Below, piece after piece: positions 4,782 to 63,842 of a DNA stretch of 64,000 nt. The notes below the pieces were generated by a model, which saw only the letters and a list, made by a program, of their open reading frames with translations, was not told where the DNA came from and made no database searches. Within the stretch, counting starts at the first letter, position 1. Every line of letters begins with the position of its first letter. The DNA comes from Candidatus Poribacteria bacterium. GTDB lineage: Bacteria > Poribacteria > WGA-4E > GCA-2687025. The stretch is from contig OY762492.1 of the NCBI GenBank assembly GCA_963665845.2, positions 2,400,001 through 2,464,000 on the forward strand. The letters run 5' to 3'. Both the position numbers and the translations under genes were made by a program.

Positions 4782-4810
4782 AGCCTATCAGCATGGCGGC
4801 GGCATGTCAA
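4782..4810 (-). promoter_or_regulatory. Sigma70-like promoter of the PFOR operon
   Basis: Minus strand TTGACA-N17-TAGGCT with an extended -10 TG. Confidence 0.6.
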
Positions 4811-4819
4811 ATCTTTAAT

Positions 4820-5008
4820 CTGACCTCATGCCTAAAGTTGAGACATTTGGACAGACGACCGCTCTATTCATGGAAAAAGGCGCCGCCAACCAGGCCGTCC
4901 CCCGCTTCCGCGAGGGCATGCATTCCCGCGCAAGCGGGAATCTAGAGGCGCCGCAGACGACGTCCGCGTTCGTCCAGCGGAATGTCCCAACTAAAGACGT
5001 AAGGTCAG
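4820..5008. mobile_element. MITE-like element family A, copy 1
   Basis: Imperfect ~26-bp terminal inverted repeats (CTGACCTCATGCCTAAAGTTGAGACA / TGTCCCAACTAAAGACGTAAGGTCAG) around an ATTCCC-N8-GGGAAT core; homologous to 26426, 46977, 61860 and 63675. Confidence 0.75.
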
Positions 5009-5092
5009 GGCAAAACAGACAGACGCTTGACGGAGCGGGGCGGAATGGTATGATGCGTCTCAGAAACGCCGCTTTTCAAAATGGAGAAATCC

Positions 5093-6061
5093 ATGCCGTT
5101 AGAATTGATTGCGACTGCCCCTAGAACCCCCGAACTGCGCGAATACGAGGACGGACCTGTCCCTGACGGAAGCGTCCGCGTTCAGACGGAATTCGGCGCG
5201 CCGAAGCACGGTACCGAAATGACCGAATACAGAGCGCACCGCGGGAGCCGATTCCCAAGGGGGCTTGGCAACATGTGCGTCGGGCGAATCGTCGAGATCG
5301 GCGGCGTTGAAGGGTTTGAGCTTGGAGAGCGCGTCGCCGGCTACGGAAGCCTCCGCGAGACGCACACCTGGAGCGGCGGCTCCGTGTTGAAAATGTCGGA
5401 GCGCATGACATGGAAAGAGGCGGTCTGTTACGACCCGGCGCATTTTGCGCTGGGCGGCGTCAGGGACGGAAACGCGCGGGCGGGCGATCATGTTGCCGTG
5501 TTTGGTCTCGGCGCGCTTGGGCAGATGTCGGCGCAGTTTGCGCGGCTCTCCGGCGCGGACACGGTGAGCGTCATCGATCCGATTGAGGCGCGGCGGCAGG
5601 TTGCGTTGAACGCCGGCGCGGATTTCGCTTTTGACGCGGACCCTGAAGTTGCCGTTTCTGGATTAAAGGAGGTCAGCGGCGGGCGCGGACCCGACCTGAT
5701 CATCGAAACGAGCGCGAATTACCGCGCCTTAGATACGGCTTTGCGCGCTCTTTCTTACGGCGGGACGGTCGCCTATATGGGCTGGCCGAAGGAGTGCGGC
5801 GGCGGGCTGGATTTCGGCGCCAAGGCGCATTTTGAGGTCCCGAACATGATCTTCACCCGCGCCTGCAGCGAGCCGAACCGCGACCATCCGCGCTGGAGTT
5901 TTCAACGCATCAGGGAAACATGCTGGCGCTGGTTGAATGCGGGAAAGCTGAACTGCGAGGAGATTGTGTCGCCTGTCGTTTCGTTTGCGGAGGTTGTGGA
6001 GGCGTATCGAACCATCGACGAGCAGCCCGAATTGAGCGTCAAATTAGGGGTCGCGTTTTAG
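5093..6061 (+). CDS. Zinc-binding alcohol dehydrogenase (MDR) family oxidoreductase
   Basis: GroES-like N-domain (HGTE, GERVAG); Rossmann motif VAVFGLGALG; GAD and GPDLIIETS. Confidence 0.85.
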   Translation: MPLELIATAPRTPELREYEDGPVPDGSVRVQTEFGAPKHGTEMTEYRAHRGSRFPRGLGNMCVGRIVEIGGVEGFELGERVAGYGSLRETHTWSGGSVLKMSERMTWKEAVCYDPAHFALGGVRDGNARAGDHVAVFGLGALGQMSAQFARLSGADTVSVIDPIEARRQVALNAGADFAFDADPEVAVSGLKEVSGGRGPDLIIETSANYRALDTALRALSYGGTVAYMGWPKECGGGLDFGAKAHFEVPNMIFTRACSEPNRDHPRWSFQRIRETCWRWLNAGKLNCEEIVSPVVSFAEVVEAYRTIDEQPELSVKLGVAF

Positions 6062-6240
6062 GCGCCCGGCGTCGTCATTCTCGCGTAAGCGGGAATCTTA
6101 ACCGATACATCTTCCGATCAAATCCATCGCCGCGAATAACTCCGTTTGAGCGGCGCTAACGATTTAGGCGCCGGGCGCTGAAGAATAAGGCGCCGTCGGG
6201 TTGAAACGCGGCGAAATCGGCGTTTCTGGGGTGGAATGTT

Positions 6241-6255
6241 CGGCACAATGTTTGC
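6241..6255 (+). promoter_or_regulatory. Candidate sigma54 (-24/-12) promoter
   Basis: CGGCAC-AATGT-TTGC with exact GG-N10-GC spacing, ~120 bp upstream of the porin-like gene. Confidence 0.55.
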
Positions 6256-6373
6256 GTCTTTAGGTGGACGGCGACGCGGGCTGTCATGAGCAGACTTGAA
6301 ATGGAATTGCAAATGGACCCCGCAGAAGCCACTATTACGGAAACAACGCATCTATCCACTCAGGAGACTTTGT

Positions 6374-7105
6374 ATGTCACGCGTTACAGCAGTTCTGACG
6401 GCGCTAGCGTTTAGCGCCGGTTTTTTGGCGTCCGCGCCGAACGCGGCTGCGCAGGATGTCGCCCTTGATTTCACCTACGCCAGCGCGTATTACTGGCGCG
6501 GCGCGTCCGCCGGCGCCGGAAACGGATTTGTTCAGCCCTCCGCGGACATCTCCTTCGCCGCCTCGCCCGATCTGTCGGTCGGGTTGAACCTCTGGATGTC
6601 GCAGGGACCTGAAGCGGCTGACGCCGACAACAGCGAGATCGATTACACCCTCTACGCCGCGTACAGCGCCGGGGATATCGGCGTCTACGCCGGCGTCATC
6701 GACTATGTGATTCCCGCCGGCGCGCCGTTTGCGGACGGGCATGTGCTGGAAGCGCATGCCGGCATCGACTTCGCGGCGGGCGATCTCGGCATCGGCGTCG
6801 CCGCCGCCCTGAACCTGGACGGCGACGATGACGACTCCATGTACATCGCCCCCAGCCTCTCCTACCCGCTCGGCAACCTGAGCCTCGCATTGAGCATCGG
6901 TCTTGGGAACGGATTCTACAGCGCGGAGGAGGAAGGCGAAGAGGACGCGATGGCGCTGGTCGACCTCACGCCCAGCGTCAGCTACGCGATCCCTCTCGGC
7001 GACGATATGGAAGCGGCGGTCGGTCTGGCGATCGGTTACAACCCCGACACCGGCGCGACTCTTCCGTTCTTGACGCTCGGAACTGGCTGGAGCTGGTCTC
7101 CATAA
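6374..7105 (+). CDS. Putative outer-membrane beta-barrel protein, TorF/Gcw_chp-like
   Basis: Signal peptide ending AAA-Q; SAYYWRG, VQPSAD and EIDY motifs; alternating beta-strand pattern; AGGAG RBS before ATG 6374. Confidence 0.7.
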   Translation: MSRVTAVLTALAFSAGFLASAPNAAAQDVALDFTYASAYYWRGASAGAGNGFVQPSADISFAASPDLSVGLNLWMSQGPEAADADNSEIDYTLYAAYSAGDIGVYAGVIDYVIPAGAPFADGHVLEAHAGIDFAAGDLGIGVAAALNLDGDDDDSMYIAPSLSYPLGNLSLALSIGLGNGFYSAEEEGEEDAMALVDLTPSVSYAIPLGDDMEAAVGLAIGYNPDTGATLPFLTLGTGWSWSP

Positions 7106-7261: not shown

Positions 7262-7279
7262 GAGCCGCCGCTGTTGTCG

Positions 7280-15775: not shown

Positions 15776-16797
15776 GGGGTACTACACGTTTGACTATATA
15801 AGCGGATTGCGCTACTCTAAAGGAAGATTGAGAAAGGAAATTCCAATGCAATCTACCAGTATCTACGAGATTTTTGAAAAATATCCCGATGAAAAAAGCG
15901 CCGCCCGATTCTTTGAAGAAAGCCGATGGCCGAACCACATCTGCTGCCCCCGATGCGATTCCAAAAACATCGCCCGAGTGAAAAACGCCAAACCGATGCC
16001 GCTCAGATGCCGAACATGCCGCAAGTATTTCAGCGTCCGCACGGGAACCATCATGGAGAAAAGCAAAATCCCCCTCCATATGTGGCTTCTGGCGCTCTAC
16101 TTGCTCCTGACGTTTAAAAAAGGCGTATCGAGCGTTACGATGGGAAAAATACTGGGCATAAGGAACCAGACTCCGCATGGTCCCTAGGCCGCCGCATCCG
16201 AGCCGCGATGGTAAGCGACGACGAAATGCTGAGCGGAACCGTGGAGATAGACGAGGTCTACGTCGGCGGCAAAGAGAGTAATAAGCATCGCAGGAAAAAG
16301 CTGGGCGTCAGAAGCGGAACCCGCGGCAAGCAGACCGTGATCGGCATGCGTCAAAGAAACGGCGAAATCCGCGCGTTTCTGCTGGACAATATGAAGATAA
16401 AAACGGTTCATGGCGCTGTAAGGGCGAATGTGGCGCCTGGGTCCACCGTTTATACCGACGCTCTCTCGACCTACAAGGGCATGGGGAATACACGCATGCC
16501 GCTGTCTCGCATCAGAAAGGCGAGTATGTTCGCGGCGATGTTCACACCAACAGCATCGAGTCGTTCTGGGCCGTCCTGAAACGCGGATACCGCGGCGTTT
16601 ACCATTTCATGTCATTTAAACATCTGGGTTTATATGTCAGCGAATTCGTGTATCGGTTCAATGTTGGCATCGACAACAGCCTGGACACTCTCGGCAAACT
16701 GATTCCGCGCATGGTCGGCAAGCGTCTCACCTTTGCGGATCTGAAAGGAGAGGGCGGCGAGAAACGACAGCAAATGGCTATCTAGGAATATAGCCCC
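15776..16797 (+). mobile_element. IS1595-family insertion sequence, copy 1 (decayed)
   Basis: GGGG...CCCC ends; transposase zinc ribbon and DDE motifs; 3' half nearly identical to the copy at 47193. Confidence 0.85.
15846..16785 (+). pseudogene. IS1595 transposase, frameshifted
   Basis: RWP..CPRC..CRTCRKYFSVRTGT, VEIDEVYVGG, YTD and HTNSIESFW are split over three ORF segments (breaks near 16170 and 16490). Confidence 0.85.
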
Positions 16798-16895
16798 CCT
16801 TGAAAAGGGTCGCGTCCGATTCCCCCCTTGAAAAGGGGGGCTGGGGGGGTTTAAGGGCGGCAGTCGCGCAAAAAAGAATACCATGCATGGGCGTA

Positions 16896-23653: not shown

Positions 23654-23783
23654 TGCAGGCGTTTTAAGATTCCCGCTTGCGCGGGAATGACGCGGCGCCG
23701 CGTCCGATTCCCCCTTGAAAAGGGGGCTAGGGGGTTTAAAGGAGGGCGCGGCTGCTGCGGCGCCTTAAGATTCCCGCTTACGC

Positions 23784-23989
23784 GGGAATGACGCGGCGGG
23801 GAGGGAATAACGCGGCGGGGAGGGAATGACGCGGCGGGGGAGGGAATGACGCGGCGGGGGAGGGAATGACGCGGCGGGGGAGGGAATGACGCGGCGGGGG
23901 AGGGAATGACGCGGCGGGGGAGGGAATGACGCGGCGGGGAGGGAATGACGCGGCGGGGGAGGGAATGACGCGGCGGGGGAGGGAATGAC
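23784..23989. repeat. G-rich 19-20 bp tandem repeat (GGGAATGACGCGGCGGGG[G]A), 10 full units plus a partial unit
   Basis: Counted directly; grows out of the right arm of an ATTCCC-N8-GGGAATGAC repeat; no spacers. Confidence 0.95.
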
Positions 23990-24108
23990 AGCAAACGGGC
24001 TGAAGCTTCTTGAGAATCCGGCGGAAGCTGCTAGACTGCATGCGCCTTGCCTTCCGCTTGGATCGTCAGGCGCAGCGTCCATTTCCGTTTTTGTTAAAAG
24101 GAGACGCC

Positions 24109-25335: not shown

Positions 25336-26130
25336 ATGCGCACCGAACTGACCCAAGACCAGATCAAGTTCTACCGAGAAAACGGCTTCATTGTGCTGGA
25401 CGAATTTTTAGACGCGGGCGAACTGGAGGAGTGGCGCGAAGCGGTTGATGAGACCGTCCACAAGCGGGGAATGTATCTTGACCCTGAAAAACGGCGCGAG
25501 AAAAGCGGCTACTACCAGCGCGTCTTCATTCAATCGCTCAACATGTGGAAAGAAAGCGAGCGCATCCGCAAGCTGATCCTCGATCCCAGAATCGGCGAGA
25601 TGTGCTGCAAGCTGGAGGGCATGAGCGGGTACCGCGTCTGGCATGATCAGGCGCTCATCAAGGAACCGTGGGCGAACCAGACCAGCTTCCATCTCGACAA
25701 CCCGTACTGGTCGTTCAGCTCGCCCCATGCGGTCAGCATCTGGGTCGCGCTGGACGACGCGACCTATCAGAACGGGTGCCTTTACTTTTTGCCGGGGACG
25801 CACAAGCAGGCGCGTTACGACAATGTCGGCATCGGTCCGCATTTCGGCGCGCTGCTTGACGTCTATCCTGAATGGGCGGAGATTGAGGCGGTCGCGGCGC
25901 CGATGAAGGCGGGCTGCTGCTCCTTCCACAACGGACTCGTCGCCCACGGCGCCGGCGCCAACGCGACGCCCGGCTATCGACGCGCCATGACCTGCGGCTA
26001 TATGCCGGACGGCGCTACCTTCAACGGCAAACAGAACATCTTGACGAACGAGCAAATAGCGCGGCTGGAGATCGGCGACCCGCTCATTGACCCTGAGCAG
26101 AACCCGCTCGTGTTCTCTACGGAGGGGTGA
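25336..26130 (+). CDS. Phytanoyl-CoA dioxygenase (PhyH) family protein
   Basis: FYRENGF, HLDNPYW (HxD), WVALDD, NGCL.FLPGTH and H..LVAHGAGAN..R. Confidence 0.9.
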   Translation: MRTELTQDQIKFYRENGFIVLDEFLDAGELEEWREAVDETVHKRGMYLDPEKRREKSGYYQRVFIQSLNMWKESERIRKLILDPRIGEMCCKLEGMSGYRVWHDQALIKEPWANQTSFHLDNPYWSFSSPHAVSIWVALDDATYQNGCLYFLPGTHKQARYDNVGIGPHFGALLDVYPEWAEIEAVAAPMKAGCCSFHNGLVAHGAGANATPGYRRAMTCGYMPDGATFNGKQNILTNEQIARLEIGDPLIDPEQNPLVFSTEG

Positions 26131-26180
26131 AGCGAACCGAAACGGCGCGGCAAACGGAATGGTAGGCGCGCTTTAGGGTT

Positions 26181-26224
26181 AAAAAAAAGAACCGAGGGAT
26201 CTTAGAGACACAGACCCCTCGGAA
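26181..26224 (-). terminator. Intrinsic terminator
   Basis: Minus strand CCGAGGG...CCCTCGG stem followed by TTCTTTTTTTT. Confidence 0.7.
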
Positions 26225-26379
26225 CAAAAGGAAAAAATAAGGAAGCGCCGCCGCTCAAAAAAGTTGAGCTTATCGGCTGCCTTTATGTCCTGGGAAGCGG
26301 CGGAGCCTCGAGTCGCAACCCGTTTTGGCGCCGCGTGCGCTGTTTGCAGGAACGCCGCAGCCGGATATAGGCGGCATTT
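26181..26379 (-). ncRNA. Candidate structured non-coding RNA (~200 nt), family unassigned (6S-like rod?)
   Basis: Upstream promoter and downstream terminator. Nested stems GCCGCC/GGCGGC, CGGCTGC/GCAGCCG, TCCTG/CAGGA, GCGGCG/CGCCGC and CGGGT/ACTCG. Confidence 0.5.
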
Positions 26380-26385
26380 GATTTA

Positions 26386-26414
26386 ACTATAGCGCCAAAC
26401 GCGGCCGGCGTCTA
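26386..26414 (-). promoter_or_regulatory. Sigma70-like promoter of the candidate ncRNA
   Basis: Minus strand TAGACG-N17-TATAGT. Confidence 0.55.
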
Positions 26415-26425: not shown

Positions 26426-26594
26426 CTGACCTTACGTCTTTAGTTGGGACATGCCGGCCGGAGGGACGCGGACGGTTTCGGCGGCGCCTCTAGATTCCCG
26501 CTTGCACGGGAATGACGGCCTGATTGGCGGCGCCTTTTTCCCATGAATAGAGCAATCATGCGTTCAAATGCCCCAACTTTATGCATGAGGTCAG
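26426..26594. mobile_element. MITE-like element family A, copy 2
   Basis: CTGACCTTACGTCTTTAGTTGGGACA...TGCCCCAACTTTATGCATGAGGTCAG with an ATTCCC-N8-GGGAAT core; inverted relative to copy 1. Confidence 0.75.
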
Positions 26595-32326: not shown

Positions 32327-32327
32327 T

Positions 32328-35939: not shown

Positions 35940-35947
35940 CATCGTTG

Positions 35948-36961: not shown

Positions 36962-36979
36962 TGGAGGCTCCTTTCTCCG

Positions 36980-39593: not shown

Positions 39594-39614
39594 TCTGTTT
39601 TCCTTTCTCGTCGG

Positions 39615-40271: not shown

Positions 40272-40312
40272 TGCGTTTTCCTTTCATGCGCGGTTGAGTT
40301 GAGGCGCGGCGG

Positions 40313-40975: not shown

Positions 40976-40990
40976 GGCGGTTTCCTTTCT

Positions 40991-41656: not shown

Positions 41657-41788
41657 GCGTTTCTCCAATCGGTTTTGCTTACCGCATACACTATAACGTA
41701 GCGTCGGGAACGGTGTCAACCTTAATTTTGTCAAAGTCCGATTTTAACTCTGGACTTCGGAAGGGCGGATAGAGAAAGGATTTTAAAA

Positions 41789-45094: not shown

Positions 45095-45753
45095 GCGTTC
45101 GGCTCATTTTGAGGGGGGCGGTCGATTTGGCGCAGACGATCTAAGGCGCGGGAGAGGCTGGGGGAGGCGTCCGCGGCGTTGTCGATGCGCCAATGGTTTT
45201 GGATGTAATCGCGCATGCATTCAATATAACCAAACCCAACTTCACGCTTTGGCTGGGGCATAAACGCCTTGCGTATTCCTGCGTCACTGGACTGACGCGC
45301 TATGCCTATAAGCGTTTTTTTCGGTTGGTCGATTTCATCGGGCTTTGTAGGAATACGGGCGGATGAAACGGATAAAAATTGCGCGATTTTTTCTTGATCA
45401 GCCATCAGCCATGCTTCCGTTGATCGAACGGCAATGTTGAAAATGAATTTGTCAGGCATGGGGACGGCAAGGCTCCAATCCGCTAGAAGTTCGGGGGCGC
45501 ATGTGTAGTTGCTCTCTAAATCGCATAGGAGAATAAACGATATGCCTCCTTTTTCCGCCGCATTCCTATATCGTTTTGCATTTAAACGAATCGAATCGCG
45601 TCCAGGAGCTTTTGTTTCGCGGTTTGGATTTTTACGAATCAACAGCGATTCCATGATGACGATCTCTGGGCAAGAATGGGCGATCAGCTGTCTGAGCGCA
45701 TCATCTTCAAGCTGACCTTCCGGCACGATCGTAACGTACATCCATTCTGTCAA
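45091..45753 (-). CDS. DUF4276-like protein (TOPRIM-like acidic motifs), partner of the ABC-type ATPase
   Basis: VPEG..ED, LCDLE, EAWLMAD, PDEI..PK and SPSL.R; coupled to the upstream ATPase. Confidence 0.6.
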   Translation of the reverse strand: MTEWMYVTIVPEGQLEDDALRQLIAHSCPEIVIMESLLIRKNPNRETKAPGRDSIRLNAKRYRNAAEKGGISFILLCDLESNYTCAPELLADWSLAVPMPDKFIFNIAVRSTEAWLMADQEKIAQFLSVSSARIPTKPDEIDQPKKTLIGIARQSSDAGIRKAFMPQPKREVGFGYIECMRDYIQNHWRIDNAADASPSLSRALDRLRQIDRPPQNEPNA

Positions 45754-46901
45754 TCAAGCGCGAATGTGAGTTGGCGGGCGTCTTTAGGAGCCGTGGTCGG
45801 GACGACCACTTCGCCTGCCGTTACTTTTTCATTCATGAGCGCATAGATATGCGGAATATCGTTTGTCATCTGGACGCATGTTCGCTCTTTTTCGGGTTGA
45901 AAAACAGCGACCTCGTTTGGGGCAATCCCTTCGTCCATCAACAGCGTTGCGCTGTGCGTACTGATCAAAACCTGGTTCAGCCCTCTCCGTTTTATTCTCA
46001 TGGATCGGGAGATGAGCTGGGGCAGATGTTGAACGACGCCTTCATGGAGTGACAGCTCCGGCTCCTCCATCAACAAAGGCCCTCGGCTGTCCAGAAGCGA
46101 CCAGAACAGCCCAATCAGCCGAAGCGTACCGTCCGAAAACTGCTCTTCGGTTTGGTTTGCGTCATGCATCCTCCAGTGCTTATACTTTGCTGCCAGATGC
46201 GGTATTCCCCGGTCGTCTCTCTCAATGCTTAAGTTCGTCAGTTGCGGCACAGTCGTTCGCAACGCCTCTTCGATACGTCGAAAACGCGCTTTTTGAGTTT
46301 TTTCGGGAGTTGCAGCCATACGCTCCAGCAATCCGTGCCCATACGCCTGAAACGCGGGGCTTTGAACAATCAGCTCGCGCGACCCGCGCACCACCTGCGG
46401 CACAAGGTGAAGGTAGGATATTTTCTCAAACGCCTCCGCAACCTCCCGAAACTTGGCGTTCGTCGATATCTGCTCTAAGTAGGTCTGTGACAAACGGGCG
46501 GGGTCGTCTTCGTCCTCCTTGTTCGGGCGGCGGCAGCGCTCCTCGCCGTTGAATAGAACGATCTCTTTAGTGATGATCGGCAAACGTTTTCCGCGCGGTT
46601 CTTGAGTGAGTTCAAGACGATACGACCATGCGTCTTGTCCAATCTGGATTTCAACCCCAATGCCGACGCGAGACGAACTTCGGGCGGAGAGACAGCGTAT
46701 TTTAGAGACGCCGCCGCGCATCTCGCACGCCGCGCGCAGCCCGCCGCCGGTCAGAACAAGATCGCGCAAAAAACGGATCGCGTCCAGGAAGTTGGACTTT
46801 CCGCTGGCGTTCGGACCGACCAGAAAGAGGCGCGGGCCGACCTTTATATCGATATTTTGAAAGTTTTTCCAGTTGCGCAGCTGAATGCGGGTGAAGCGCA
46901 T
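45750..46901 (-). CDS. SMC/ABC-type ATPase (AAA_21-like)
   Basis: L.NWKNF, Walker A GPNASGKSN, signature SDGT, Walker B LMEEPE..LH and QVLISTHS. Confidence 0.9.
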   Translation of the reverse strand: MRFTRIQLRNWKNFQNIDIKVGPRLFLVGPNASGKSNFLDAIRFLRDLVLTGGGLRAACEMRGGVSKIRCLSARSSSRVGIGVEIQIGQDAWSYRLELTQEPRGKRLPIITKEIVLFNGEERCRRPNKEDEDDPARLSQTYLEQISTNAKFREVAEAFEKISYLHLVPQVVRGSRELIVQSPAFQAYGHGLLERMAATPEKTQKARFRRIEEALRTTVPQLTNLSIERDDRGIPHLAAKYKHWRMHDANQTEEQFSDGTLRLIGLFWSLLDSRGPLLMEEPELSLHEGVVQHLPQLISRSMRIKRRGLNQVLISTHSATLLMDEGIAPNEVAVFQPEKERTCVQMTNDIPHIYALMNEKVTAGEVVVPTTAPKDARQLTFALD

Positions 46902-46937: not shown

Positions 46938-46966
46938 ATGGTACGCTGTAGAGCGGCGGATGTCAA
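46938..46966 (-). promoter_or_regulatory. Sigma70-like promoter of the ATPase gene
   Basis: Minus strand TTGACA-N17-TACCAT. Confidence 0.6.
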
Positions 46967-47192
46967 ACGGCGGGAACTGACCTTTTAAATTGGGACATGT
47001 CGTCTGGCAAACGCGACAGTTTCTGCGGCGCCTCTAGATTCCCGTTTGCGCGGGAATGACGGCGGGTAGGATGACGGTTTCGGCGAATGCTGACAGTTTC
47101 TACGGCGCCTCTAGATTCCCGCTTGCGCGGGAATGACGGCTGGTGGGATAACAGCGGATAGGGCGCGGGGTCTCTAGACTCCCCCTTTTCAA

Positions 47193-48211
47193 GGGGATTA
47201 CTTACTTAGCTATCCTCGCGTTTCGCGCTAGTATACATGCTAGTCATGGCACAGGGAGCGATCCGATGCAGTTTAGCAGCATTTACGATTTATTCGAGCA
47301 GATTCCAAACGAGAAAGCAGCCGCGCGGTTCTTTGAGCAGCATCGCTGGCCGGACGGCAGATGCTGTCCCAAATGCGGCTCCAAACACGGCGCCCGTCAA
47401 AAATGCGAAACCGATGCCGTTCCGATGCCGAACTTGCCGCAAGCATTTTAGCGTCCGGACCGAAACCTTGATGGCAAACAGCAGGCTTGCGCTGCACAAG
47501 TGGGTCCTAGCGATTTACCTGATGCATACCTCGCGCATGGGCATCTCCAGCGTTGAGATGGCAAAGAAGATCGGAACGACGCAGAAGACAGTATGGTTCT
47601 TGTGCCATCGCATCCGAGCCGCGATGGAAAGTGACGACGAGATGCTGCGCGGCATCGTGAGGCGGACGAGACCTACATCGGCGGCAAGGAAAAAACAAGC
47701 GTTCCTCGAAACGGCTGCGCGTCGGAAGCGGAACCGGGGCAAGAAGCCCGTGATGGGCATGCGTCAAAGGAACGGTGAAATTCGGGCGTATCCACTGGAC
47801 AATATGAAAAAGAAAACGCTGCACGAGGCTGTAAGGGCGAATGTGGCGCCCGGGTCAACCCTTTATACCGACGCTCTCCCGACCTACAAGGGCATGCAGG
47901 AATACACGCATGCCGCTGTCTCGCATCAGAAAGGCGAGTATGTTCGCGGCGATGTTCACACCAACAGCATCGAGTCGTTCTGGGCCGTGTTAAAACGCGG
48001 ATACCGCGGGGTTTACCATTTCATGTCGTTTAAACATCTGGGTTTATATGTCAGCGAATTCATGTATCGATTCAATGTTGGCATCGACAACAGTCTGGAC
48101 ACTCTCGGCAAACTGATTCCGCGCATGGTCGGCAAGCGTCTCGCCTTTGCGGATCTGAAAGGAGAAGGCGGCGTAAAACGACAGCAAATGGCTATCTAGG
48201 AATATAGCCCC
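47193..48211 (+). mobile_element. IS1595-family insertion sequence, copy 2 (decayed)
   Basis: GGGG/CCCC ends; near-direct flanks CTTTTCAA / CTTTCAA; transposase motifs. Confidence 0.85.
47266..48199 (+). pseudogene. IS1595 transposase, frameshifted
   Basis: N-terminus (RWPDG..CPKCGS) is out of frame with the rest; the DETYIGG motif region is also shifted; HTNSIESFW intact. Confidence 0.85.
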
Positions 48212-48554
48212 CTTTCAAGGGGAGTCTAGAACCCGCGCCCTACCCGCCGTCATTCCCGCGCAAGCGGGAATCTTAAAGCATTGCAGCCGCCGCGCCCGCG
48301 GAAAACCCCCAGCCCCCCTTTTAAGGGGAGTCTAGAATCCGCGCCCTACCCGCCGTCATTCCCGCGCAAGCGGGAATCTTAAAGCACCGCAGAAGTCGCG
48401 CCCGCGGAAAACCCCCCCAGCCCCCCTTTTCAAGGGGAGTCTAGAATCCGCGCCCTACCCGCCGTCATTCCCGCGCAAGCGGGAATCCAGAGGCGGCGCA
48501 GAAAACGTCTGCCGTCGCATGCAGACATGTCCCAACTAAAGACTCAAGGTCAAA

Positions 48555-53990: not shown

Positions 53991-54213
53991 CCAGACGGTT
54001 TCGGGTTCGCCTCTGGATTCCCGCTTGCGCGGGAATGACAGCCGCCCGATTACAGCGTAGGGCGCGGGCTTCTAGACTCCCCCTTTAAAAGGAGGCTGGG
54101 GGTTTTACGGCAGGCGGCGCAGACGCTTTATGGTCAAAATACGGAATTTGGAAAAATAGCGCTAAAATCAAAGCGGGAACTGCCACAAGAGAGCTGAACG
54201 AAAGGAGCGCCGA

Positions 54214-55590
54214 ATGAACGACCGACCGCTAAGCGACTTCGACGCGACGGTTCTTGGGCAGATGGAGCATATCCGCGCCATCGGCAGAAAACGGCTGCGC
54301 AACCAGAACGAACTGGACGACTTCGTCCAAGAGACGGCGGCGCGCGTCTATGCGAACCGCGATCAGTTGCGCGACCCAGCCAAGCTGAAGCAGTGGATCG
54401 CCGGCATCGCGCGGAACACCGCGAACGAGCTGAACCGCGCCGGCTTCCGTAGACGCGAAGAACCGCTGCCGGAAGACGATGGCGAACTGCCGACCATGCC
54501 CGATCCGCATGAAGAACTGGAACGGGCGGAGCGGAACGACCAGATACGTCAAGCGATGAACAGGCTGAACCCGATCGACCGCGACCTGCTGCAGGGGCGG
54601 TATATGGAGGAGGAGTCGTACGCCGATCTTCAGGAGCGGCATGGGCTGTCCTACTCGGCGGTTGGGTTTCGGCTGCATCGCGCGAAGAGCCGTCTTCGGA
54701 AGTTGCTGACCGGAATGAAGGTCGCGTTGGCATTGGCGCTCGCCAACATGAAACAAACCGCATTTGGAGGAATGCTCATCATGACCAAAACGACCAAGAT
54801 CGTTCTCGCAACAGCGTCGGCTCTCATTCTCGCCCTGCTGGGCGGGTATCTCTGGATCGAATACGGCGGCGCGTCGGACGATTCAGATCAGGGGCTGACG
54901 GTTGAGGAACAGTCGCCGATCATCCATGCCCGCGGCGCCGACGACCGCGCCGATTCTTCAGCCGAAACGGAAACGGCAGGCGGAACCGAAACCTTGCTGA
55001 CGGCTGAAGCTCCCTCAACCGGCGGAACAGGCGAGACGGCAGACGCGCCCAACGCCGGCGAGGCGGCGGCCGTTGACGCGCCCGACGCCTTTTCAACCGA
55101 ATTCCAGGAAGGCGTTGAAGAAATGAGCGACTTTGCGAAAAAGATGGTGGCGGAGTTTCCCGAATTCGAGGGCTTGACAGAAGCGGCGGCGGCAATGGGG
55201 GATGTTCTCCTGAAACGCGAAGCGGAATTGCGGCAACAAGGAATGTCCGCTGCCGAACGCAAAACGCAGCTCCGCGCAACATATCAGGCAGAGTCTAAGA
55301 AGATGTCAGAGATCATCGTAGGAGAAATGACCTTCGGAATGGCTCCCGATTTCTCGTCAGTTGATCCCTCGTCCAAGTCATTCGATCCAACCTCGCTGCT
55401 CCAAATGACAGGTCGGTTTCGCGCCTTAACTCAGTTCATCGTTGAAAATCAGCCCAAAAAGTTGGAAACTGTTCTTGGACTTCCAACAGGGAACAATCCG
55501 TCAATGGATGAGATCAATGACATCTTCAACGGTCTCGATTCCTCCATCATTGACGCCGCCGCGCCGTCAATGGAGCCGGAGGACCGGTAA
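54214..55590 (+). CDS. ECF sigma factor fused via a TM helix to the helical domain (class III)
   Basis: Region 2 DDFVQET...WIAGIARN; region 4 LNPIDR...SYADL...AVGFRLHRAK.RLR; TM; acidic linker; DAFSTEFQEGV...PKKLETVLG. Confidence 0.88.
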   Translation: MNDRPLSDFDATVLGQMEHIRAIGRKRLRNQNELDDFVQETAARVYANRDQLRDPAKLKQWIAGIARNTANELNRAGFRRREEPLPEDDGELPTMPDPHEELERAERNDQIRQAMNRLNPIDRDLLQGRYMEEESYADLQERHGLSYSAVGFRLHRAKSRLRKLLTGMKVALALALANMKQTAFGGMLIMTKTTKIVLATASALILALLGGYLWIEYGGASDDSDQGLTVEEQSPIIHARGADDRADSSAETETAGGTETLLTAEAPSTGGTGETADAPNAGEAAAVDAPDAFSTEFQEGVEEMSDFAKKMVAEFPEFEGLTEAAAAMGDVLLKREAELRQQGMSAAERKTQLRATYQAESKKMSEIIVGEMTFGMAPDFSSVDPSSKSFDPTSLLQMTGRFRALTQFIVENQPKKLETVLGLPTGNNPSMDEINDIFNGLDSSIIDAAAPSMEPEDR

Positions 55591-55699
55591 GAGTTCGTTG
55601 TTCGGCAAATTTTGTTGACGCCGCGTCAAGCCGCATGCAAATAGCGCTAAAAACGCTGAGGGCGCTGCCACAACTGAACCGAACGAAAGGAGCGCTGAA

Positions 55700-56959
55700 A
55701 TGCATGACCGACCGCTAAGCGACTTCGACGCGACGGTTCTAGGGCAGATGGAGCATATACGCGCCATCGGCAAAAATCGGCTGCGCAACCAGAATGAGCT
55801 GGACGACTTTGTCCAAGAGACGGTCGCGCGCGCCTATGCGAACCGCGATCAGCTGCGCGACCCCGCCAAGATAAAGCAGTGGATCGCCGGCATCGCGCGA
55901 AACACGGCGAACGAGATGAACCGCGCGGCGTACCGCAGACGCGAAGAGCCGCTTCCAGACGAAGACCAGCTGCAGGACGACACGCGCGATCCGCATGAAG
56001 AACTGGAACGGGCGGAGCGGAACGAGCAGATACGCGCCGCGATGAACAGGCTGAACCCGATCGACCGCGACCTGCTGCAGGGGCGGTATATGGAGGAGGA
56101 GTCGTATGCCGATCTTCAGGAGCGGCATGGGCTTTCCTACTCGGCGGTCGGGTTTCGGCTGCATCGCGCAAAGCGCCGTCTTCGGAAGTTGTTGACCGGA
56201 ATGAAGGTCGCGTTGGCATTGGCGCTCGCCAACATGAAACGAACAGCATTTGGAGGAGTGCTTATCATGACCAAAACGACCAAGATCGTTCTCGGCGTCG
56301 CGTCCGCCATCATTCTCGCCCTGCTGGGCGGGTACCTGTGGGTCGAATACGGCGCACCATCGGACGACTCGAAGCCTGGGCTGACGGTTGAAGAGCGCGG
56401 GCTGACGGTTGAAGATCAGTCGCCGATCTTCAAGCAGAAATCTGCTGAAACGCCAAAGCAAACCGCCGAAGAAACCTCTGCGCCGGAGCGGCAAGAGAAA
56501 ACGCGCGTTTTTGAAGATTCGATCGCTTCTGAAAAGTCTGCCGCCCCGTCTGACGACAGCGAAAGCGTCGGCGCAACGCAGCCCGACGCCCTGCAAACCG
56601 CTCCGCAAGACCCGTTCACCGTCGAACTTCAGGAGGGGGTCCGCGAGTTTAAGGAGGTGTACCAGCGTCTTGTTGAATTGCATCCAGGTCCGAGGGCAAC
56701 TTACATCGCAGCTCTGCATAATGAAGTTGTCGACAACATGGCGGAATACAATGAGGAGCTGCAAGATCAAAACTTGGAGAGCGCGGAACGCGCCGCCAGA
56801 CTTGCCGCCCGCCTCATCGAGACCTCGCAACGGCTGGAGCCGCAGTACACCGCGATGCTGGCCAAAATACACCCTGAAGAAAAGAAAACATACGCTCAAT
56901 TCATGAAAAACAACACGCCCCGAAAACTGTTCGTTTTTCTCGGGATGCTGCCAGAATAA
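55700..56959 (+). CDS. ECF sigma factor fused via a TM helix to the helical domain (class III), paralog 2
   Basis: Sigma part nearly identical to 54214; different C-terminal domain variant (DPFTVELQEGV...PRKLFVFLG). Confidence 0.88.
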   Translation: MHDRPLSDFDATVLGQMEHIRAIGKNRLRNQNELDDFVQETVARAYANRDQLRDPAKIKQWIAGIARNTANEMNRAAYRRREEPLPDEDQLQDDTRDPHEELERAERNEQIRAAMNRLNPIDRDLLQGRYMEEESYADLQERHGLSYSAVGFRLHRAKRRLRKLLTGMKVALALALANMKRTAFGGVLIMTKTTKIVLGVASAIILALLGGYLWVEYGAPSDDSKPGLTVEERGLTVEDQSPIFKQKSAETPKQTAEETSAPERQEKTRVFEDSIASEKSAAPSDDSESVGATQPDALQTAPQDPFTVELQEGVREFKEVYQRLVELHPGPRATYIAALHNEVVDNMAEYNEELQDQNLESAERAARLAARLIETSQRLEPQYTAMLAKIHPEEKKTYAQFMKNNTPRKLFVFLGMLPE

Positions 56960-57107
56960 ATCTGTTTTCAGCGCCGCGGGCGGGGGACCTCAAACGGCGT
57001 TCCCTGCCCACTGCGCCGCTGAAATCTGGCAGGTTCTTTTTTTGGCGGCATCGTGTATCATCAGGGCGTCAACCTCTATGAGAAACGACGGGAAGGCGTT
57101 CTGAATC

Positions 57108-57929
57108 ATGACGAAAACGACCAAGATCGTTCTTGCGGTTTCTGCCGCTCTGTTGATAGCGATGCTGGGCGCGTATCTTTGGATCGAATACGGCGGCGGG
57201 TCGGACGACTCGGATCAAGGGCTGACGGTTGAGGAGCAGTCGCTGGTCATCCATGACAGCGGCGCAGAGGACAGCGCCGATTCTTCAACCGAAACGGAAC
57301 CGTCCGACGACTCTGAAGCCGCGCAAACTTCCGAAGCGGAGCAGGCTGTCGACAACGGCGGCGCGGAAAATACAGCGGCAGCGTCTCCCGACGCCTCCGC
57401 CGACGCGCCTGACGATTTTTCAATCCAGCTCCAAGAGGGCATCCAGGAAATCGTCGATTACGTTGCAAAGGTGAAAGCGCAAATTCCTAAAATGGATTTG
57501 TTCGAGGAGACAACGCTCGCTTCCGTGGAGGGTCTTGATGAGCTGGACGCGCAATTGCGGCGGCAGGGGGTAGCGCTGGAAGAACGGAGAGAAAAACTGC
57601 TGACGAAGTATCTGTATAACTCCATGGATAACACAGGTTCCATGATAGTGGGGTTTGCCTCCATGACGCAGTTAGAAGGGGGCTTTAACACAGAGCGCAT
57701 GGCAGAGTTGCCCCTGATTCTCCGTAGCATAGGGGAGCCTCCTAAAAAGCTGACCAATCTGCTGATGGGCGATATGACCGAGGCGCAGCTGATACAGAAA
57801 ATGATGACAATCCCTGAATATCGGGCGAAGGTGGAGGCGGCGATGTCGGAGATGAGAGAGAGCTTGCAAGATCTCGATCTAGAGAGTCTTGATCTATCGG
57901 GGCCAATTGAAGATCCGTTGCGCCGCTGA
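57108..57929 (+). CDS. Helical-domain family, class II (sigma-less, MTKTTKIV start)
   Basis: Begins at the MTKTTKIVL segment that is internal in the sigma fusions; DDFSIQLQEGI; PKKLTNLL. Confidence 0.82.
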   Translation: MTKTTKIVLAVSAALLIAMLGAYLWIEYGGGSDDSDQGLTVEEQSLVIHDSGAEDSADSSTETEPSDDSEAAQTSEAEQAVDNGGAENTAAASPDASADAPDDFSIQLQEGIQEIVDYVAKVKAQIPKMDLFEETTLASVEGLDELDAQLRRQGVALEERREKLLTKYLYNSMDNTGSMIVGFASMTQLEGGFNTERMAELPLILRSIGEPPKKLTNLLMGDMTEAQLIQKMMTIPEYRAKVEAAMSEMRESLQDLDLESLDLSGPIEDPLRR

Positions 57930-58014
57930 AATCGGGCAGGTTCATTTTTCAGCGGCATCGTGTATCATCAGGGCGTCAACCTCTATGAGAAACGACGGGA
58001 AGGCGTTCTGAATC

Positions 58015-58845
58015 ATGACGAAAACGACCAAGATCGTTCTTGCGGTATCTGCCGCTCTGTTGATAGCGATGCTGGGCGCGTATCTTTGGATCGAATACGG
58101 CGGTTCATCGGACGACTCGGATCAAGGGCTGACGGTTGAGGAGCAGTCGCCGGTCATCCATGACAGCGGCGCAGACGACAGCGCCGATTCTTCAGCCGAA
58201 ACGGAACCGCCCGACGACTCCGAAGCCGCGCAAACTTCCGAAGCGGAGCAGGCGGACGACAACGGCGGCGCGGAAAATACAGCGGCAGCGTCTCCCGACG
58301 CCTCCGCCTCCGCCGACGCGCCTGACGAATTTTCAACCCAGCTCCAAGAGGGCATACAGGAAATCGTCGATTACGCGGCAAAGATGAAGGCGCAAGTTCC
58401 TGAAATGGCTTCGTTCGGGGACACGTCTCTCGCTTCTGTGGAGGGTCTTGCTGAGCTGGACGCGCAATTGCGGCGGCAGGGAACGGCGCTGGAAGCGCGG
58501 AGAGAGCAGCTGCTCATGAAGTACATCAATAACACCATGGACAACTTAGGTTCCATGACGACGGGGGCTGCCTCCATGGCGCTGTCAGGAGGGGCATTGA
58601 CCCCTGAGCGCATAATGGAGTTGTCCCAAAGCTTCGAGAGCATGGAGCCTCCTAAAAAGCTGCATACGCTGCTGCGCGGCGATATGACGGAGGAGGAGCT
58701 GACGCAGAAAATGATGGCAACGCCTGAATATAAGGCGAAGGTGGAGGCGGCGATGTCGGAGATGAGAGAGAGCTTGCAAGGTCTTGATCTAGAGGGTCTC
58801 AATCTGGACGATCTTGAACTGCCGGAGCTGCATGAGGATCGATAA
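58015..58845 (+). CDS. Helical-domain family, class II (sigma-less), tandem paralog
   Basis: Recent duplicate of 57108, including ~90 bp of upstream sequence; central domain diverged. Confidence 0.82.
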   Translation: MTKTTKIVLAVSAALLIAMLGAYLWIEYGGSSDDSDQGLTVEEQSPVIHDSGADDSADSSAETEPPDDSEAAQTSEAEQADDNGGAENTAAASPDASASADAPDEFSTQLQEGIQEIVDYAAKMKAQVPEMASFGDTSLASVEGLAELDAQLRRQGTALEARREQLLMKYINNTMDNLGSMTTGAASMALSGGALTPERIMELSQSFESMEPPKKLHTLLRGDMTEEELTQKMMATPEYKAKVEAAMSEMRESLQGLDLEGLNLDDLELPELHEDR

Positions 58846-58854
58846 AAGCCGTTT

Positions 58855-60687: not shown

Positions 60688-60856
60688 CCTCTGTCAAATC
60701 GGTATAGACAGCTGCTCAACAGCCGTTAATACATGAATACACTGCAGAGGCGCCAGCGTCCATATTTTGTTTTAAGTCGGATTCCGATGGCGCCGCCGCC
60801 TCCGATTCCCCCTTGAAAAGGGGCAGGGGGGGTTTTGAGCGCCCTGGTTGCGCTTG

Positions 60857-60985
60857 GTTTTGAACTAGGATTTTCAGGATTTATAGGATTAAAGGATTTG
60901 GGGTATGAGGGCATGTCAAGGGCGGCGCATCGGCTTTGACATGCCTCATGGCAATCTTTTCAATCATGCAAATCTTAGTTCAGAC
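60857..60985. repeat. Repeat family C copy
   Basis: TTTTGAACTAGGATT...AATCTTAGTTCAGAC, flanked by family B and A-core repeats. Confidence 0.7.
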
Positions 60986-61043
60986 GGCAACCGCGGCGGC
61001 TAAGATTCCCGCACATTTTACCGCAAGGGCGGAAATGACATGG

Positions 61044-61790
61044 TTATTGGACGCCCTCCCATCGGCTCCACAGGTCGCCGTCCGCGGTGTCGAATTTCCA
61101 CTCGTCCTGGTCTTTTCGGCTGATGCGCGTGATGAGAGCCATGCGGGGTCGTTCGCCGGCGTTGGTGCTGGCGGTGTGGGAGATCCACCCGTGCCAGAAG
61201 CAGACGTCGCCCGGCCCGCCCGTGAACTCATACGGCTCGCCCAGCGAAAAATGGACGACGCCGCCCTGCGGTCCATCGATCGGATGCGTCCGAAAATACT
61301 CGGCGAAGAGGCGGTGGCTGCCCGGCCACAAGGTGAACCCGCCGCCTTTATGGTCAACCTTGTCGATGTAGATCGTCGCGGCGATCATGAACCGCCCCGT
61401 CGTGCCTTTTACGACGCCGTTGTGCGGGGTGTAATATCCGTCCAGATGTCCGCGCGCGGGGATGCTCCATGCCTTGTTGGAGCGCGGGAACGATATGTGC
61501 GGGCTGGCGCCTCCCGGTCCGTGTATGTTTTCGTCGCCGACCAGCTGCCGCGCCGCGCCATGCACTCCGCCTTCGCGCACAATCCGCTTTACGATGTCGG
61601 AGCCGCCGACGCCGCCGATCGTCTTGTATCCCTGATCAAGCCAAGAGGCGGGGTCGCTTCTCTCCGCGTCCAGATTCTCCCACACCAGATCCAGCGCCTC
61701 TTCCGTCCACTCGCGCGGGATCATTTCTCGGCAGACAAGATAGCCGTTCTCCTGAAAAGATTTCACCTGCTCATTCGTCAAAGTCGCCAT
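61044..61790 (-). CDS. PhyH family dioxygenase
   Basis: LT.EQV.SFQENGY, HLDG, GGFTLWPGSH and GDVCFWH..HTAS.N..PR. Confidence 0.85.
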   Translation of the reverse strand: MATLTNEQVKSFQENGYLVCREMIPREWTEEALDLVWENLDAERSDPASWLDQGYKTIGGVGGSDIVKRIVREGGVHGAARQLVGDENIHGPGGASPHISFPRSNKAWSIPARGHLDGYYTPHNGVVKGTTGRFMIAATIYIDKVDHKGGGFTLWPGSHRLFAEYFRTHPIDGPQGGVVHFSLGEPYEFTGGPGDVCFWHGWISHTASTNAGERPRMALITRISRKDQDEWKFDTADGDLWSRWEGVQ

Positions 61791-61820
61791 ACGATTCTCC
61801 ACAGCGGTTCATTTAGGCAA

Positions 61821-61849
61821 ACAATACCGGAGCCTATCGAAAAAGTCAA
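61821..61849 (-). promoter_or_regulatory. Sigma70-like promoter of the PhyH gene
   Basis: Minus strand TTGACT-N17-TATTGT. Confidence 0.6.
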
Positions 61850-61859
61850 GCGGCGCAAT

Positions 61860-62325
61860 CTGACCTTACGTCTTTAGTTGGGACATGCCGCTGTGCGAAC
61901 GCGGACGTCTTCTGAGGCGCCTCTAGATTCCCGCTTACGCGGGAATGACGGTCTGGTTGGCGGCGCCTTTTTCCCATGAATAAAGGCTTTGGTCGTTCAG
62001 TTGTCCCAACTTTCAGCATGATGTCAGCCTCCGCGCTGACCTTACTCTTTCGTTGGGACATTCCGCCTGGCGAACGCGGACATCGTCTTCGGCGCCTCTA
62101 GATTCCCGCTTACGCGGGAATGACCGTTTGGTTGGCGGCGCCTTTTTCCCATGAATAAAGGCTTTGGTCGTTCAGTTGTCCCAACTTCAGCATGATGTCA
62201 GCCTCCGCGTTGACCTTACTCTTTCGTTGGGACATTCCGCCTGGCGAACGCGGACGTCTTCTGCGGCGCCTCTAGATTCCCGCTGACGCGGGAATGACCG
62301 TTTAGTTGGCGGAGCCTTCTTCCGA
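61860..62325. mobile_element. Tandem array of MITE-like family A: two full copies (61860-62027, 62036-62201) and one truncated copy
   Basis: Three successive TGACCTTAC..GTTGGGACAT starts with ~175-bp periodicity. Confidence 0.8.
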
Positions 62326-62386
62326 TAAACAGCGGATGACATATGCGCGGAAAAATGCCATACTATAAACGGAAAGAGGCTCCGCT

Positions 62387-62944
62387 ATGTTCGATCTATC
62401 CGCCGCTATTTACTGGATCCCGCTTTTTTGCCTTTTTGTGATAGCGGGGCTGTATGTTTTTGGCATCGAGATCGACGCGCTGGGCTACATAGACGATCGG
62501 GACGCCGGCTGGAAACGGCTGCTCTTTCCGCGCCCCGATCTGCGCGGTTTGTCTGCCGCTTTATTCATCGCGGCCTGGTCGGCGGCTGGACTCTCGCTCA
62601 CCGCCGCCGCGGGTCAGGGAGCCGCATGGCCGACGCGTCTATTGATCGCCGCCGCTGCGCTCGCCGCAAGCTGGGCAGTCTCCTACAGCGGAACGCTGCT
62701 CATCGACCTGATCTTTCCGTCCGAAGCGAAGCGCCCGCGCCGCGCCGAACTGATCGGAGAATCGGCGACGATACTTGACACGCCCGTTTCAGGCGACCTC
62801 GGACGCGCGCGCGTACATCTCCCTAGCGGCGGCTCCATCACGGTGTTTTGTAAAAACATCGGCGACGGCGAGTTTCCCTCTGAAGGCTCCGTCGTCATGA
62901 TCGCCGCCTACGACGAAGAAACGAACACCTTCGACGTGTTTTGA
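62387..62944 (+). CDS. NfeD/YqiJ-like membrane protein (TM helices + C-terminal OB fold)
   Basis: Hydrophobic N-terminal half; LIGESA.I...GRARV...G..V.I..YD OB-fold pattern. Confidence 0.65.
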   Translation: MFDLSAAIYWIPLFCLFVIAGLYVFGIEIDALGYIDDRDAGWKRLLFPRPDLRGLSAALFIAAWSAAGLSLTAAAGQGAAWPTRLLIAAAALAASWAVSYSGTLLIDLIFPSEAKRPRRAELIGESATILDTPVSGDLGRARVHLPSGGSITVFCKNIGDGEFPSEGSVVMIAAYDEETNTFDVF

Positions 62945-62949
62945 CGCGG

Positions 62950-63591
62950 CTAACGAACAGGCGGAAGCTGTATCGCCGGCGGTTGAACCGACACAACCCG
63001 CCCGTTGATGCGGACGCGCCCCTCCGCCGCCGCAAACACTGCCTGCGGATACAGCGCATGCTCAACCGCATGGATTTTCGCCGTCAGCGTTTCTAAGGTG
63101 TCGCTCGGACGAATCAGAACAGGGCATTGGGCGACGATCGGGCCGGTATCGACCCCTTCGTCCACATAATGAACCGTGACGCCGGTCGTCTTGACGCCAT
63201 GCTCCCATGCGTCCTGGACGCCGCGCGTCCCTGGGAACGCCGGCAGCAGCGACGGGTGGATATTCAGGATGCGGTTTTGATACCGCCGCACAAAATCGGC
63301 GCCGAGTATGCGCATAAAACCTGCAAGCGCGATCAGCTGAACGCCGCGCGCCTCCAGTTCTCGGACGGCGGCCGCCTCAAACGCGGCGCGTCCGCCGGCG
63401 CGCTTCGGGCTGATATGGACGGCGTCCACTCCCGCGTTTCGGGCGCGTTCGAGCGCGCGCGCGTTCTCCCGGTCGCTCACCGCAAGCGCGATCTCAACAG
63501 GCGCGTCGGGGCGGCGGCGCGCCGCGTCCATCAACGCCTGCAAATTTGAGCCGTTGCCGGACGCGAACACAGCCAGTTTGACCTTAGACAT
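62950..63591 (-). CDS. purN: Phosphoribosylglycinamide formyltransferase
   Basis: SGNGSNLQAL, LAGFMRIL, NIHPSLLP.FPG, TGVTVHYV..GVDTGPI..Q and EH.LYP. Confidence 0.96.
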   Translation of the reverse strand: MSKVKLAVFASGNGSNLQALMDAARRRPDAPVEIALAVSDRENARALERARNAGVDAVHISPKRAGGRAAFEAAAVRELEARGVQLIALAGFMRILGADFVRRYQNRILNIHPSLLPAFPGTRGVQDAWEHGVKTTGVTVHYVDEGVDTGPIVAQCPVLIRPSDTLETLTAKIHAVEHALYPQAVFAAAEGRVRINGRVVSVQPPAIQLPPVR

Positions 63592-63636
63592 CACAAAGCT
63601 CCATGAAGCCTGTTGACTCGCCCTGCGGCAATCCGC

Positions 63637-63665
63637 ATGCTACTATGGTAACGCAGACGCATCAA
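63637..63665 (-). promoter_or_regulatory. Possible sigma70-like promoter of purN
   Basis: Minus strand TTGATG-N17-TAGCAT. Confidence 0.45.
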
Positions 63666-63674
63666 GGCGGAGAG

Positions 63675-63842
63675 CTGACCACACCCTTAGAGTTGGGACA
63701 ATTCTGGTTGTGAACGCGGACGGTTTCGGGGTAGACTCTGGATTCCCGCTTACGCGGGAATGACGATCCGGTTGATGACGCCTTTAACCCATGAATAGAG
63801 CGATGGTCGGTTCAAATGTCCCAACTTTAGGCGTCAGGTCAG
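63675..63842. mobile_element. MITE-like element family A, diverged copy
   Basis: CTGACC..GTTGGGACA...TGTCCCAACTTTAGGCGTCAGGTCAG; flanked on both sides by GGAGAG. Confidence 0.75.

Follow-up and report, generated by a model that had tools for sequence, protein, structure and literature searches.

MITE Copies and Adjacent Promoters in the Window

We analyzed a 64,000-nucleotide stretch of a Candidatus Poribacteria genome (hereafter the window, G000:C1:2400001-2464000; the genome assembly comprises 3.98 Mb in three contigs with 59.7% G+C) and found a family of mobile elements whose ends lie at a defined distance upstream of predicted sigma70-type promoters. The elements are short, noncoding, and multicopy, are bounded by inverted repeats, and are associated with target-site duplications; they are thus transposable elements of the miniature inverted-repeat kind (MITEs). 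An earlier note on this DNA had reported 9, 11, 10, 10, and 9 nt between the terminus CTGACC and a -35 box at five loci, and rereading the sequence gave exactly these distances. All five promoters read leftwards, as the -35 box is on the minus strand with a -10-like hexamer 17 nt on, and they point away from the element. The copies and promoters are as follows.

4782..4810, minus strand: promoter TTGACA-N17-TAGGCT, 9 bp from the MITE end at 4820 (-35, forward strand tgtcaa, at 4805-4810; -10 TAGGCT at 4782-4787; spacer 17); faces the POR/PFOR-type oxidoreductase gene 2770-4743(-)
4820..5008: MITE copy of 189 bp, long variant, in orientation opposite to the other window copies and without a perfect target-site duplication
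26386..26414, minus strand: promoter TAGACG-N17-TATAGT, 11 bp from the MITE end at 26426 (-35 TAGACG at 26409-26414; -10 TATAGT at 26386-26391)
26426..26594: MITE copy of 169 bp
46938..46966, minus strand: promoter TTGACA-N17-TACCAT, 10 bp from the end at 46977 (-35 TTGACA at 46961-46966; -10 TACCAT at 46938-46943); faces the AAA_21 ATPase gene 45750-46901(-)
46977..47010: degenerate end of MITE type, reading CTGACC..TTGGGACA and carrying a deletion, then dRS3-like hairpin units; it scores under the threshold of the terminus profile used below
48520..48553: isolated right-hand end of MITE type (TTGACC...), without an adjoining promoter
61821..61849, minus strand: promoter TTGACT-N17-TATTGT, 10 bp from the MITE end at 61860 (-35 TTGACT at 61844-61849; -10 TATTGT at 61821-61826); faces the PhyH-family gene 61044-61802(-)
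61860..62027: MITE copy of 168 bp, first in a row of three tandem copies
62036..62201: second tandem MITE copy, 8 bp (cctccgcg) past the first
62210..62330: third tandem MITE copy, without its right end; abuts a promoter-like stretch before the gene 62387-62944(+)
63637..63665, minus strand: promoter TTGATG-N17-TAGCAT, 9 bp from the MITE end at 63675 (-35 TTGATG at 63660-63665; -10 TAGCAT at 63637-63642); faces the formyltransferase gene 62950-63594(-)
63669..63674: target-site duplication GGAGAG, promoter side, 3 bp (ggc) from the -35 hexamer
63675..63842: MITE copy of 168 bp, 99% identical to two other copies in the genome
63843..63848: target-site duplication GGAGAG, distal side

The copy at 62036-62201, the truncated one from 62210, and the end at 48553 were missing from the five loci of the earlier note. 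The GGAGAG duplication that it had seen around the copy at 63675 was located on both sides of that copy, and either element end can indeed face a promoter, since the copy at 4820..5008 is inverted relative to the others.

Spacing between Element Ends and Promoters across the Genome

In the whole genome, a strict terminus pattern identified 240 termini and an end profile 402. Around the strict termini, outward-facing TTGACA hexamers with at most one mismatch were found at offsets 8, 9, 10, and 11 in 7, 28, 27, and 13 cases, respectively, with approximately one case at each of the other offsets. A fuller promoter test required a -35 box with at most two mismatches and TAnnnT at a spacer of 16 to 18. 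Among the 402 profile termini, this motif occurred 3, 35, 37, 18, and 8 times at offsets 8 to 12 and zero to two times at every other offset between 0 and 69. At offsets 9 to 12, it was present in 96 of the 402 termini and in 99 of 20,000 random intergenic positions (0.5%; binomial P about 5e-128). Collection of the genomic copies and a logo of their flanks, as proposed in the earlier note, thus gave a TTGACA signal at a fixed offset, and the distances were clearly tighter than those of random intergenic positions, the comparison on which that note had let its proposal depend. A chance association is ruled out by the peak at offsets 8 to 12 and the contrast with random positions. A peak of TTGACA-like hexamers at the same place on the opposite strand was discarded as an artifact, as TTGACAA backwards reads TTGTCAA and is one mismatch off the motif.

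The hexamers next to the elements resemble complete promoters. TAnnnT at a spacer of 16 to 18 accompanied 39 of the 75 strict termini with a -35 box, compared with 2% of 5,000 random TTGACA-like sites, and the spacer between the two boxes had its mode at 17. Among TTGACA-like sites in intergenic sequence, those with a -10 box were occupied by an element in 53 of 425 cases (12.5%) and those without in 45 of 6,952 cases (0.65%), an approximately 19-fold difference; in coding sequence, 12 such sites were occupied and 27,921 were free. Of 99 promoter-bearing termini, 93 faced the 5' end of a co-directional gene as called by a crude in-house gene finder, and the predicted start site was mostly between -40 and +70 nt from the start codon.

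Target-Site Duplications Define the Distance

In total, we found 111 paired elements with both ends present, including 53 of 168 bp and 11 of 190 bp, none of which contained an open reading frame (ORF). Perfect target-site duplications flanked 48 of them, with lengths of 5, 6, 7, 8, and 9 bp in 3, 23, 15, 5, and 2 cases, respectively. Among these 48, a promoter was present on exactly one flank in 31 cases, on neither in 17, and on both in none. The offset of the -35 box equaled the duplication length plus 3 bp in 28 of the 31 cases. The distances given in the earlier note therefore stand, while the loose spread of 9 to 11 bp does not: it is a duplication of 5 to 9 bp plus a constant 3 bp, and the empty site would accordingly read duplication, three bases, TTGACA. 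The promoter-side joint is thus constant and the far joint variable.

We confirmed the rule with a logo in which the flanks were aligned by the duplication alone, without scanning of offsets. One side gave T.85 T.85 G.77 A.65 C.54, followed by TA...T 17 bp on, and a hexamer with at most two mismatches to TTGACA was in register on the better side of 30 of the 48 elements and on the other side of none (0/48). Several of the 18 failures had a TTGCGn hexamer in register together with good -10 boxes. Some copies were back to back, 5, 6, 8, or 9 bp apart, representing reuse of the target of one promoter; at C1:3593007/3593013, the second copy had reused the duplication aaggcg, 3 bp from TTGAAC-N17-TATGCT. 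With the duplication placed between the -35 box and the end of the element, and with promoters that bear no relation to one another, the data agree with the view of the earlier note that the promoter is outside the element.

Every MITE copy contains a dRS3-like hairpin, ATTCCCGC-N4-GCGGGAAT, with conserved flanks, and the same hairpin also occurs solo and in 77-bp tandem units. In the window, this family (D4) is found at 26471-26531, 47015-47152, 61904-61964, 63719-63779, and eight more places. We considered the hairpin as a part of the targeting machinery and rejected it, as it is absent from the related insertion sequence described below and from the ends of its relatives; it is cargo, acquired by the MITE, given its absence from the parent insertion sequence.

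A Related Insertion Sequence Encodes a Putative IS4/Tn5-Type Transposase

The earlier note had considered the transposase unknown and suggested a search for a gene between the same ends. The search found one insertion sequence of 1,267 bp (G000:C1:561322-562588), the sole copy in the genome, which encloses an ORF of 371 codons and shares the ends CTGACC...AGTTGGGACA with the MITEs. Both of its ends align with the MITE ends over approximately 30 bp and nothing else is in common, so the MITEs, with 111 paired copies lacking an ORF, are nonautonomous as the note had claimed. Because the ends are identical, we infer that the MITEs are mobilized by this insertion sequence. The promoter-adjacent habit itself is carried mainly by the approximately 200 nonautonomous MITE copies.

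The encoded protein matches the Pfam family DDE_Tnp_1 (1.8e-13), and among NCBIfam models only those of IS4, IS1634, and IS701 type, all below their cut-offs (the best, NF033591, with 77.7 bits against a cut-off of 152). The aligned catalytic residues are D87, D168, and E267, with the signature Y260-R263-E267-K274 (alignment A1), and position 267 is E or D among the relatives. The predicted structure (pLDDT 80.4, pTM 0.80) had Tn5 transposase as the top five solved structures in a Foldseek search, the best being 3ecp_A (E 1.7e-11, TM 0.57). On the basis of sequence and model, the transposase is assigned as an IS4/Tn5-type DDE enzyme with a Tn5-like predicted fold, and not as the Mutator-like enzyme that the earlier note had brought into the comparison. 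The ORF passes through the left inverted repeat and ends 10 nt outside; the last 50 residues were poorly modeled and are missing from a 94%-identical homolog of 321 residues. A tblastn search with the transposase against plasmids gave no match.

Relatives in Other Phyla Follow the Same Rule

Homologs of the transposase are mostly unnamed metagenome proteins. A scan of genome contigs with the single transposase protein returned no loci and an alignment query was needed: with this, and one genome per species, we obtained 80 loci encoding proteins of 42 to 51% identity, mostly from Chloroflexota (Anaerolineae) and a few from other phyla. Recognizable inverted repeats, CTGAnnTTCrGACAnrAGTTCGGACA, were present in 70 of 78 copies. 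Among 135 flanks, TTGACA with at most one mismatch was found at offsets 8, 9, 10, and 11 in 4, 20, 26, and 5 cases, respectively, against a background of less than one per offset.

The 40 relatives with a duplication, 5 to 8 bp long, had a promoter on exactly one flank in 32 cases, evenly divided between left only (16) and right only (16), and the offset equaled the duplication plus 3 in 31 of 34. Their register logo was T.97 T.95 G.97 A.72 C.75, followed by TAnAAT at 17 bp, the second hexamer having frequencies of T.65 A.65 ..T.80 seventeen bp past the -35 box; a -10 box accompanied 47 of 56 hexamer matches. As relatives at 42 to 51% identity obey the same rule, the promoter habit belongs to the transposase clade and not to this genome alone.

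The 25 relative copies without a duplication were different, with promoters on both flanks in 7 and on neither in 5. Recombination or misassembly between copies would explain this pattern, and the 1,267-bp element of our genome belongs to the duplication-less, both-flank kind. In one Chloroflexota genome, we observed three targeted promoters (L036, L042, and L043) that were nearly identical, TTGACAAATCAGAAyAwAwGTTCTAATATT, while the duplications differed, which points to a promoter type that recurs there.

How the Target May Be Chosen

We consider it somewhat probable that the transposase picks its target by docking on promoter-bound sigma70 RNA polymerase. The guidance by RNA polymerase is suggested by the approximately 19-fold more frequent use of sites with a -10 box. 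In such a mechanism, the position of the target would be fixed at integration and not by later selection, and the object recognized would be a promoter occupied by the holoenzyme and not the bare hexamer; the simplest contact would be with sigma region 4 seated on the -35 box. Strand transfer on the promoter side would be fixed 3 bp upstream of the -35 box, with the other falling 5 to 9 bp further upstream. The core promoter would be left unharmed down to about -45, making the site a safe haven, while sequence upstream of about -45 would be displaced by the insertion and upstream regulators could be cut off. The wider statement is that a whole clade of Tn5-fold transposases, in hosts ranging from Chloroflexota to sponge symbionts, uses region 4 of sigma70 on promoter-bound RNA polymerase as its dock and integrates, precise to the single base, 3 bp upstream of the -35 box; we see it as evenly balanced. 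If true, it would be a second, independently evolved case of landing by the beacon of the transcription machine, here in the transposase fold that is understood best, and in uncultured bacteria the MITE offspring would serve as natural labels of promoters that are active.

The hexamer may instead be read directly, with a DNA-binding domain of the transposase recognizing TTGAC(A) and cutting 3 bp away without any role for RNA polymerase. The domain would perhaps be the same one that binds the TTSGGACA motifs of the element's own inverted repeats, and promoters would be used because hexamers there can be interrupted harmlessly. We hold this to be possible, if rather unlikely. The distance to the hexamer is constant to the base pair, as direct reading would have it, and TTGGGACA, a word resembling the -35 box but two bases longer, is found in the inverted repeats (e.g., at window 63675-63700), while those of the relatives contain TTCGGACA twice, at positions 7-14 and 19-26; the resemblance means that the domain could read TTGAC directly and counts against a docking on the polymerase. 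So does the fact that the -10 box is not obligatory: TAnnnT is missing at 45 of the 98 occupied intergenic sites, and approximately 14 insertions are located beside TTGAAA inside CCCCCTTGAAAAGGGGG hairpin repeats that are not promoter-like, the ends lying 8 to 11 bp from the TTGAAA and making these repeats the main target class without a -10 box. Direct reading does not account for the occupancy of intergenic hexamers with and without a -10 box, however, and harmlessness fails to explain the difference because a nonpromoter intergenic hexamer should be at least as safe. Moreover, in two distant host groups the logo, with its C at -36, TTG stronger than ACA, and 17-bp spacer, has the form of sigma70 promoters, and TTSGGACA is two bases longer than TTGACA.

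Two further explanations place the cause outside target choice. Insertion could be random or weakly biased, with elements surviving only at harmless spots just upstream of promoters, as might be read from their near absence from coding sequence and from the core promoter being intact after the insertion. Selection alone cannot yield base-pair precision, however, and is rejected on that ground as highly improbable: the duplication-plus-3 rule holds to the single base in both data sets, the offsets just beyond 8 to 12 are empty, promoter-free intergenic DNA should be equally tolerable although random intergenic positions rarely carry the motif, and independent copies reuse one exact target. The least credible explanation is that the promoter is borne by the element, as an outward-facing mobile promoter at its end. 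Some insertion-sequence ends do carry outward -35 boxes, and the three nearly identical promoters in one Chloroflexota genome could be seen in the same light. The duplication separates the element from the -35 box, however, so the promoter is not cargo; it is also found on one flank only, its spacer and -10 box differ unrelatedly among copies, and the tRNA promoter beside the copy at G000:C1:1262381 exists without the element in G001, a sister genome of the same genus (89 to 93% identity, 40 contigs, 91% complete).

Several other observations weigh against polymerase-guided targeting. By the criteria used, a promoter is absent from 17 of the 48 own elements with a duplication and from 7 of the 40 relatives. 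The only full-length insertion sequence has no duplication and is bordered on either side by a promoter-like motif (TTGACA-N17-TAAAAT, TTGAAC-N17-TATCAT), and the agreement with gene direction depends on the crude gene calls. The empty sites that the earlier note had proposed to look for in sister strains were not forthcoming in G001: comparison of 13 MITE loci of G001 with G000 and three of G000 with G001 gave no clean empty site. Each case was instead an insertion common to both genomes, a deletion of larger size, or a disruption of gene order at the element, the closest case being the tRNA promoter above. Among 25 termini in G001, the strict motif test was passed by three, and the best hexamer at offsets 8 to 12 started with TTG in 10. 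Public sequencing runs consist of contigs ending at repeats and can neither bridge empty sites nor give start sites.

Gene Order and Other Features

The gene order of G000 and G001 is broken at many MITE sites (L090-L102 and L103-L115), and the flanks of one G001 copy are megabases apart in G000. Either copies have recombined with one another, or the breaks stem from assembly joins in G001, which is in 40 contigs. G001 has many MITE copies and, with the query used (20 relatives searched), only a marginal fragment of a transposase gene; another genome, G003, has many broken fragments of the gene.

In the window, the promoter at 26386..26414 is followed by approximately 250 nt (26130-26385, minus strand) in which no ORF was called, and an Rfam search gave no match for this stretch or for the window as a whole. 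The stretch has an end near a GC hairpin with a T-run at approximately 26230-26260 and is a candidate small RNA. Between the MITE-type ends at 46977 and 48553 is a gene for an IS1595-family (ISXO2-like) transposase (47237-48199, plus strand), 300 bp of which is repeated at 16485-16784 with 96% identity. A run labeled as sponge metagenome (X6) contains a strain approximately 94% alike over window 60964-61858.

Other repeats are also present. The CCCCCTTGAAAAGGGGG hairpin family (D6, D10) is located at 16804-16849, 23692-23737, 35603-35762, 37641-37800, and 60790-60835. Directly past a dRS3-like hairpin, 23779-24009 contains approximately eleven tandem copies of the 20-bp unit GGGGAGGGAATGACGCGGCG (D5). 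Diverged direct-repeat arrays at 31341-38414, 39336-41671, and 54213-58604, with periods of approximately 1.07 kb, 0.68 kb, and 0.9 to 1.5 kb (D1-D3, D12-D20), look like tandem paralogous genes.

Comparison with Known Systems

Promoter targeting by this family would provide a second system for studying how a transposase reads a promoter, and a targeting module on a Tn5 scaffold would be experimentally tractable because the chemistry and structure of Tn5 are well understood. The approximately 100 occupied sites form a base-precise map of predicted promoters in an uncultured bacterium, and the same applies to the Chloroflexota genomes. The pile-ups of copies at promoters, and the breaks in gene order there between sister genomes, suggest that the family has a further part in rearranging the genome and could detach promoters from the regulators upstream.

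The transposase resembles those of the IS4 family in being a single-ORF DDE enzyme with D-D-E spacings of 81 and 99 residues and the Y(2)R(3)E(6)K signature, and the element has 5'-CT(GA) ends as in IS10, IS50, and ISPepr1 (PMC2266710); the Tn5-like predicted fold agrees with this. It differs in its duplications, which are 5 to 9 bp (mode 6-7) and not about 10 bp (PMC2266710), and in scoring under every NCBIfam cut-off for IS4. In the accessible text of the IS4 review by De Palmenaer et al. (2008), the word "promoter" has no occurrences (0), and for ISPepr1 the only preference reported there is for AT-rich targets (PMC2266710). In the full-text literature, with ISfinder and subscription journals outside its reach, we found no earlier account of IS4-type elements that target promoters.

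A similar strategy is known from the retrotransposon Ty3, which integrates at RNA polymerase III start sites, likewise upstream of genes and at a fixed spot set by the bound transcription machine, as a safe haven (PMC6673722). As a eukaryotic retroelement, Ty3 uses an integrase, however, and its tether consists of Pol III factors, so the analogy is one of strategy only.

The closest parallel is that of TnGBS, ISLre2 (p-MULT 3), and the ISKra4 group (p-MULT 4), which have Mutator-like transposases and insert 15 to 17 bp upstream of sigmaA -35 boxes (PMC3942029), a promoter specificity that Guerillot et al. (2014) termed "unique" (PMC3942029). According to that source, these elements share with ours a DDE transposition into the stretch immediately upstream of the -35 box in sigmaA/sigma70 promoters at a constant distance, with the promoter left intact and directed away from the element, and the ISKra4 group and ISLbu1 also have near-symmetric inverted repeats and insert in both orientations (PMC3942029). 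The spacing differs, as the earlier note had claimed: the element end is here at 8 to 12 bp (mode 9-10) and the joint at 3 bp, compared with 15 to 17 bp (PMC3942029). Here, too, the duplications are variable at 5 to 9 bp, the habit is mostly carried by MITE copies, and the transposase is of the DDE_Tnp_1 family with a Tn5-like predicted fold, unlike the prokaryotic Mutator-like enzymes. The promoter habit has so far been described only for those unrelated transposases, and its presence in an IS4/Tn5 fold, with a sharper and different geometry, indicates a convergent safe-haven strategy.

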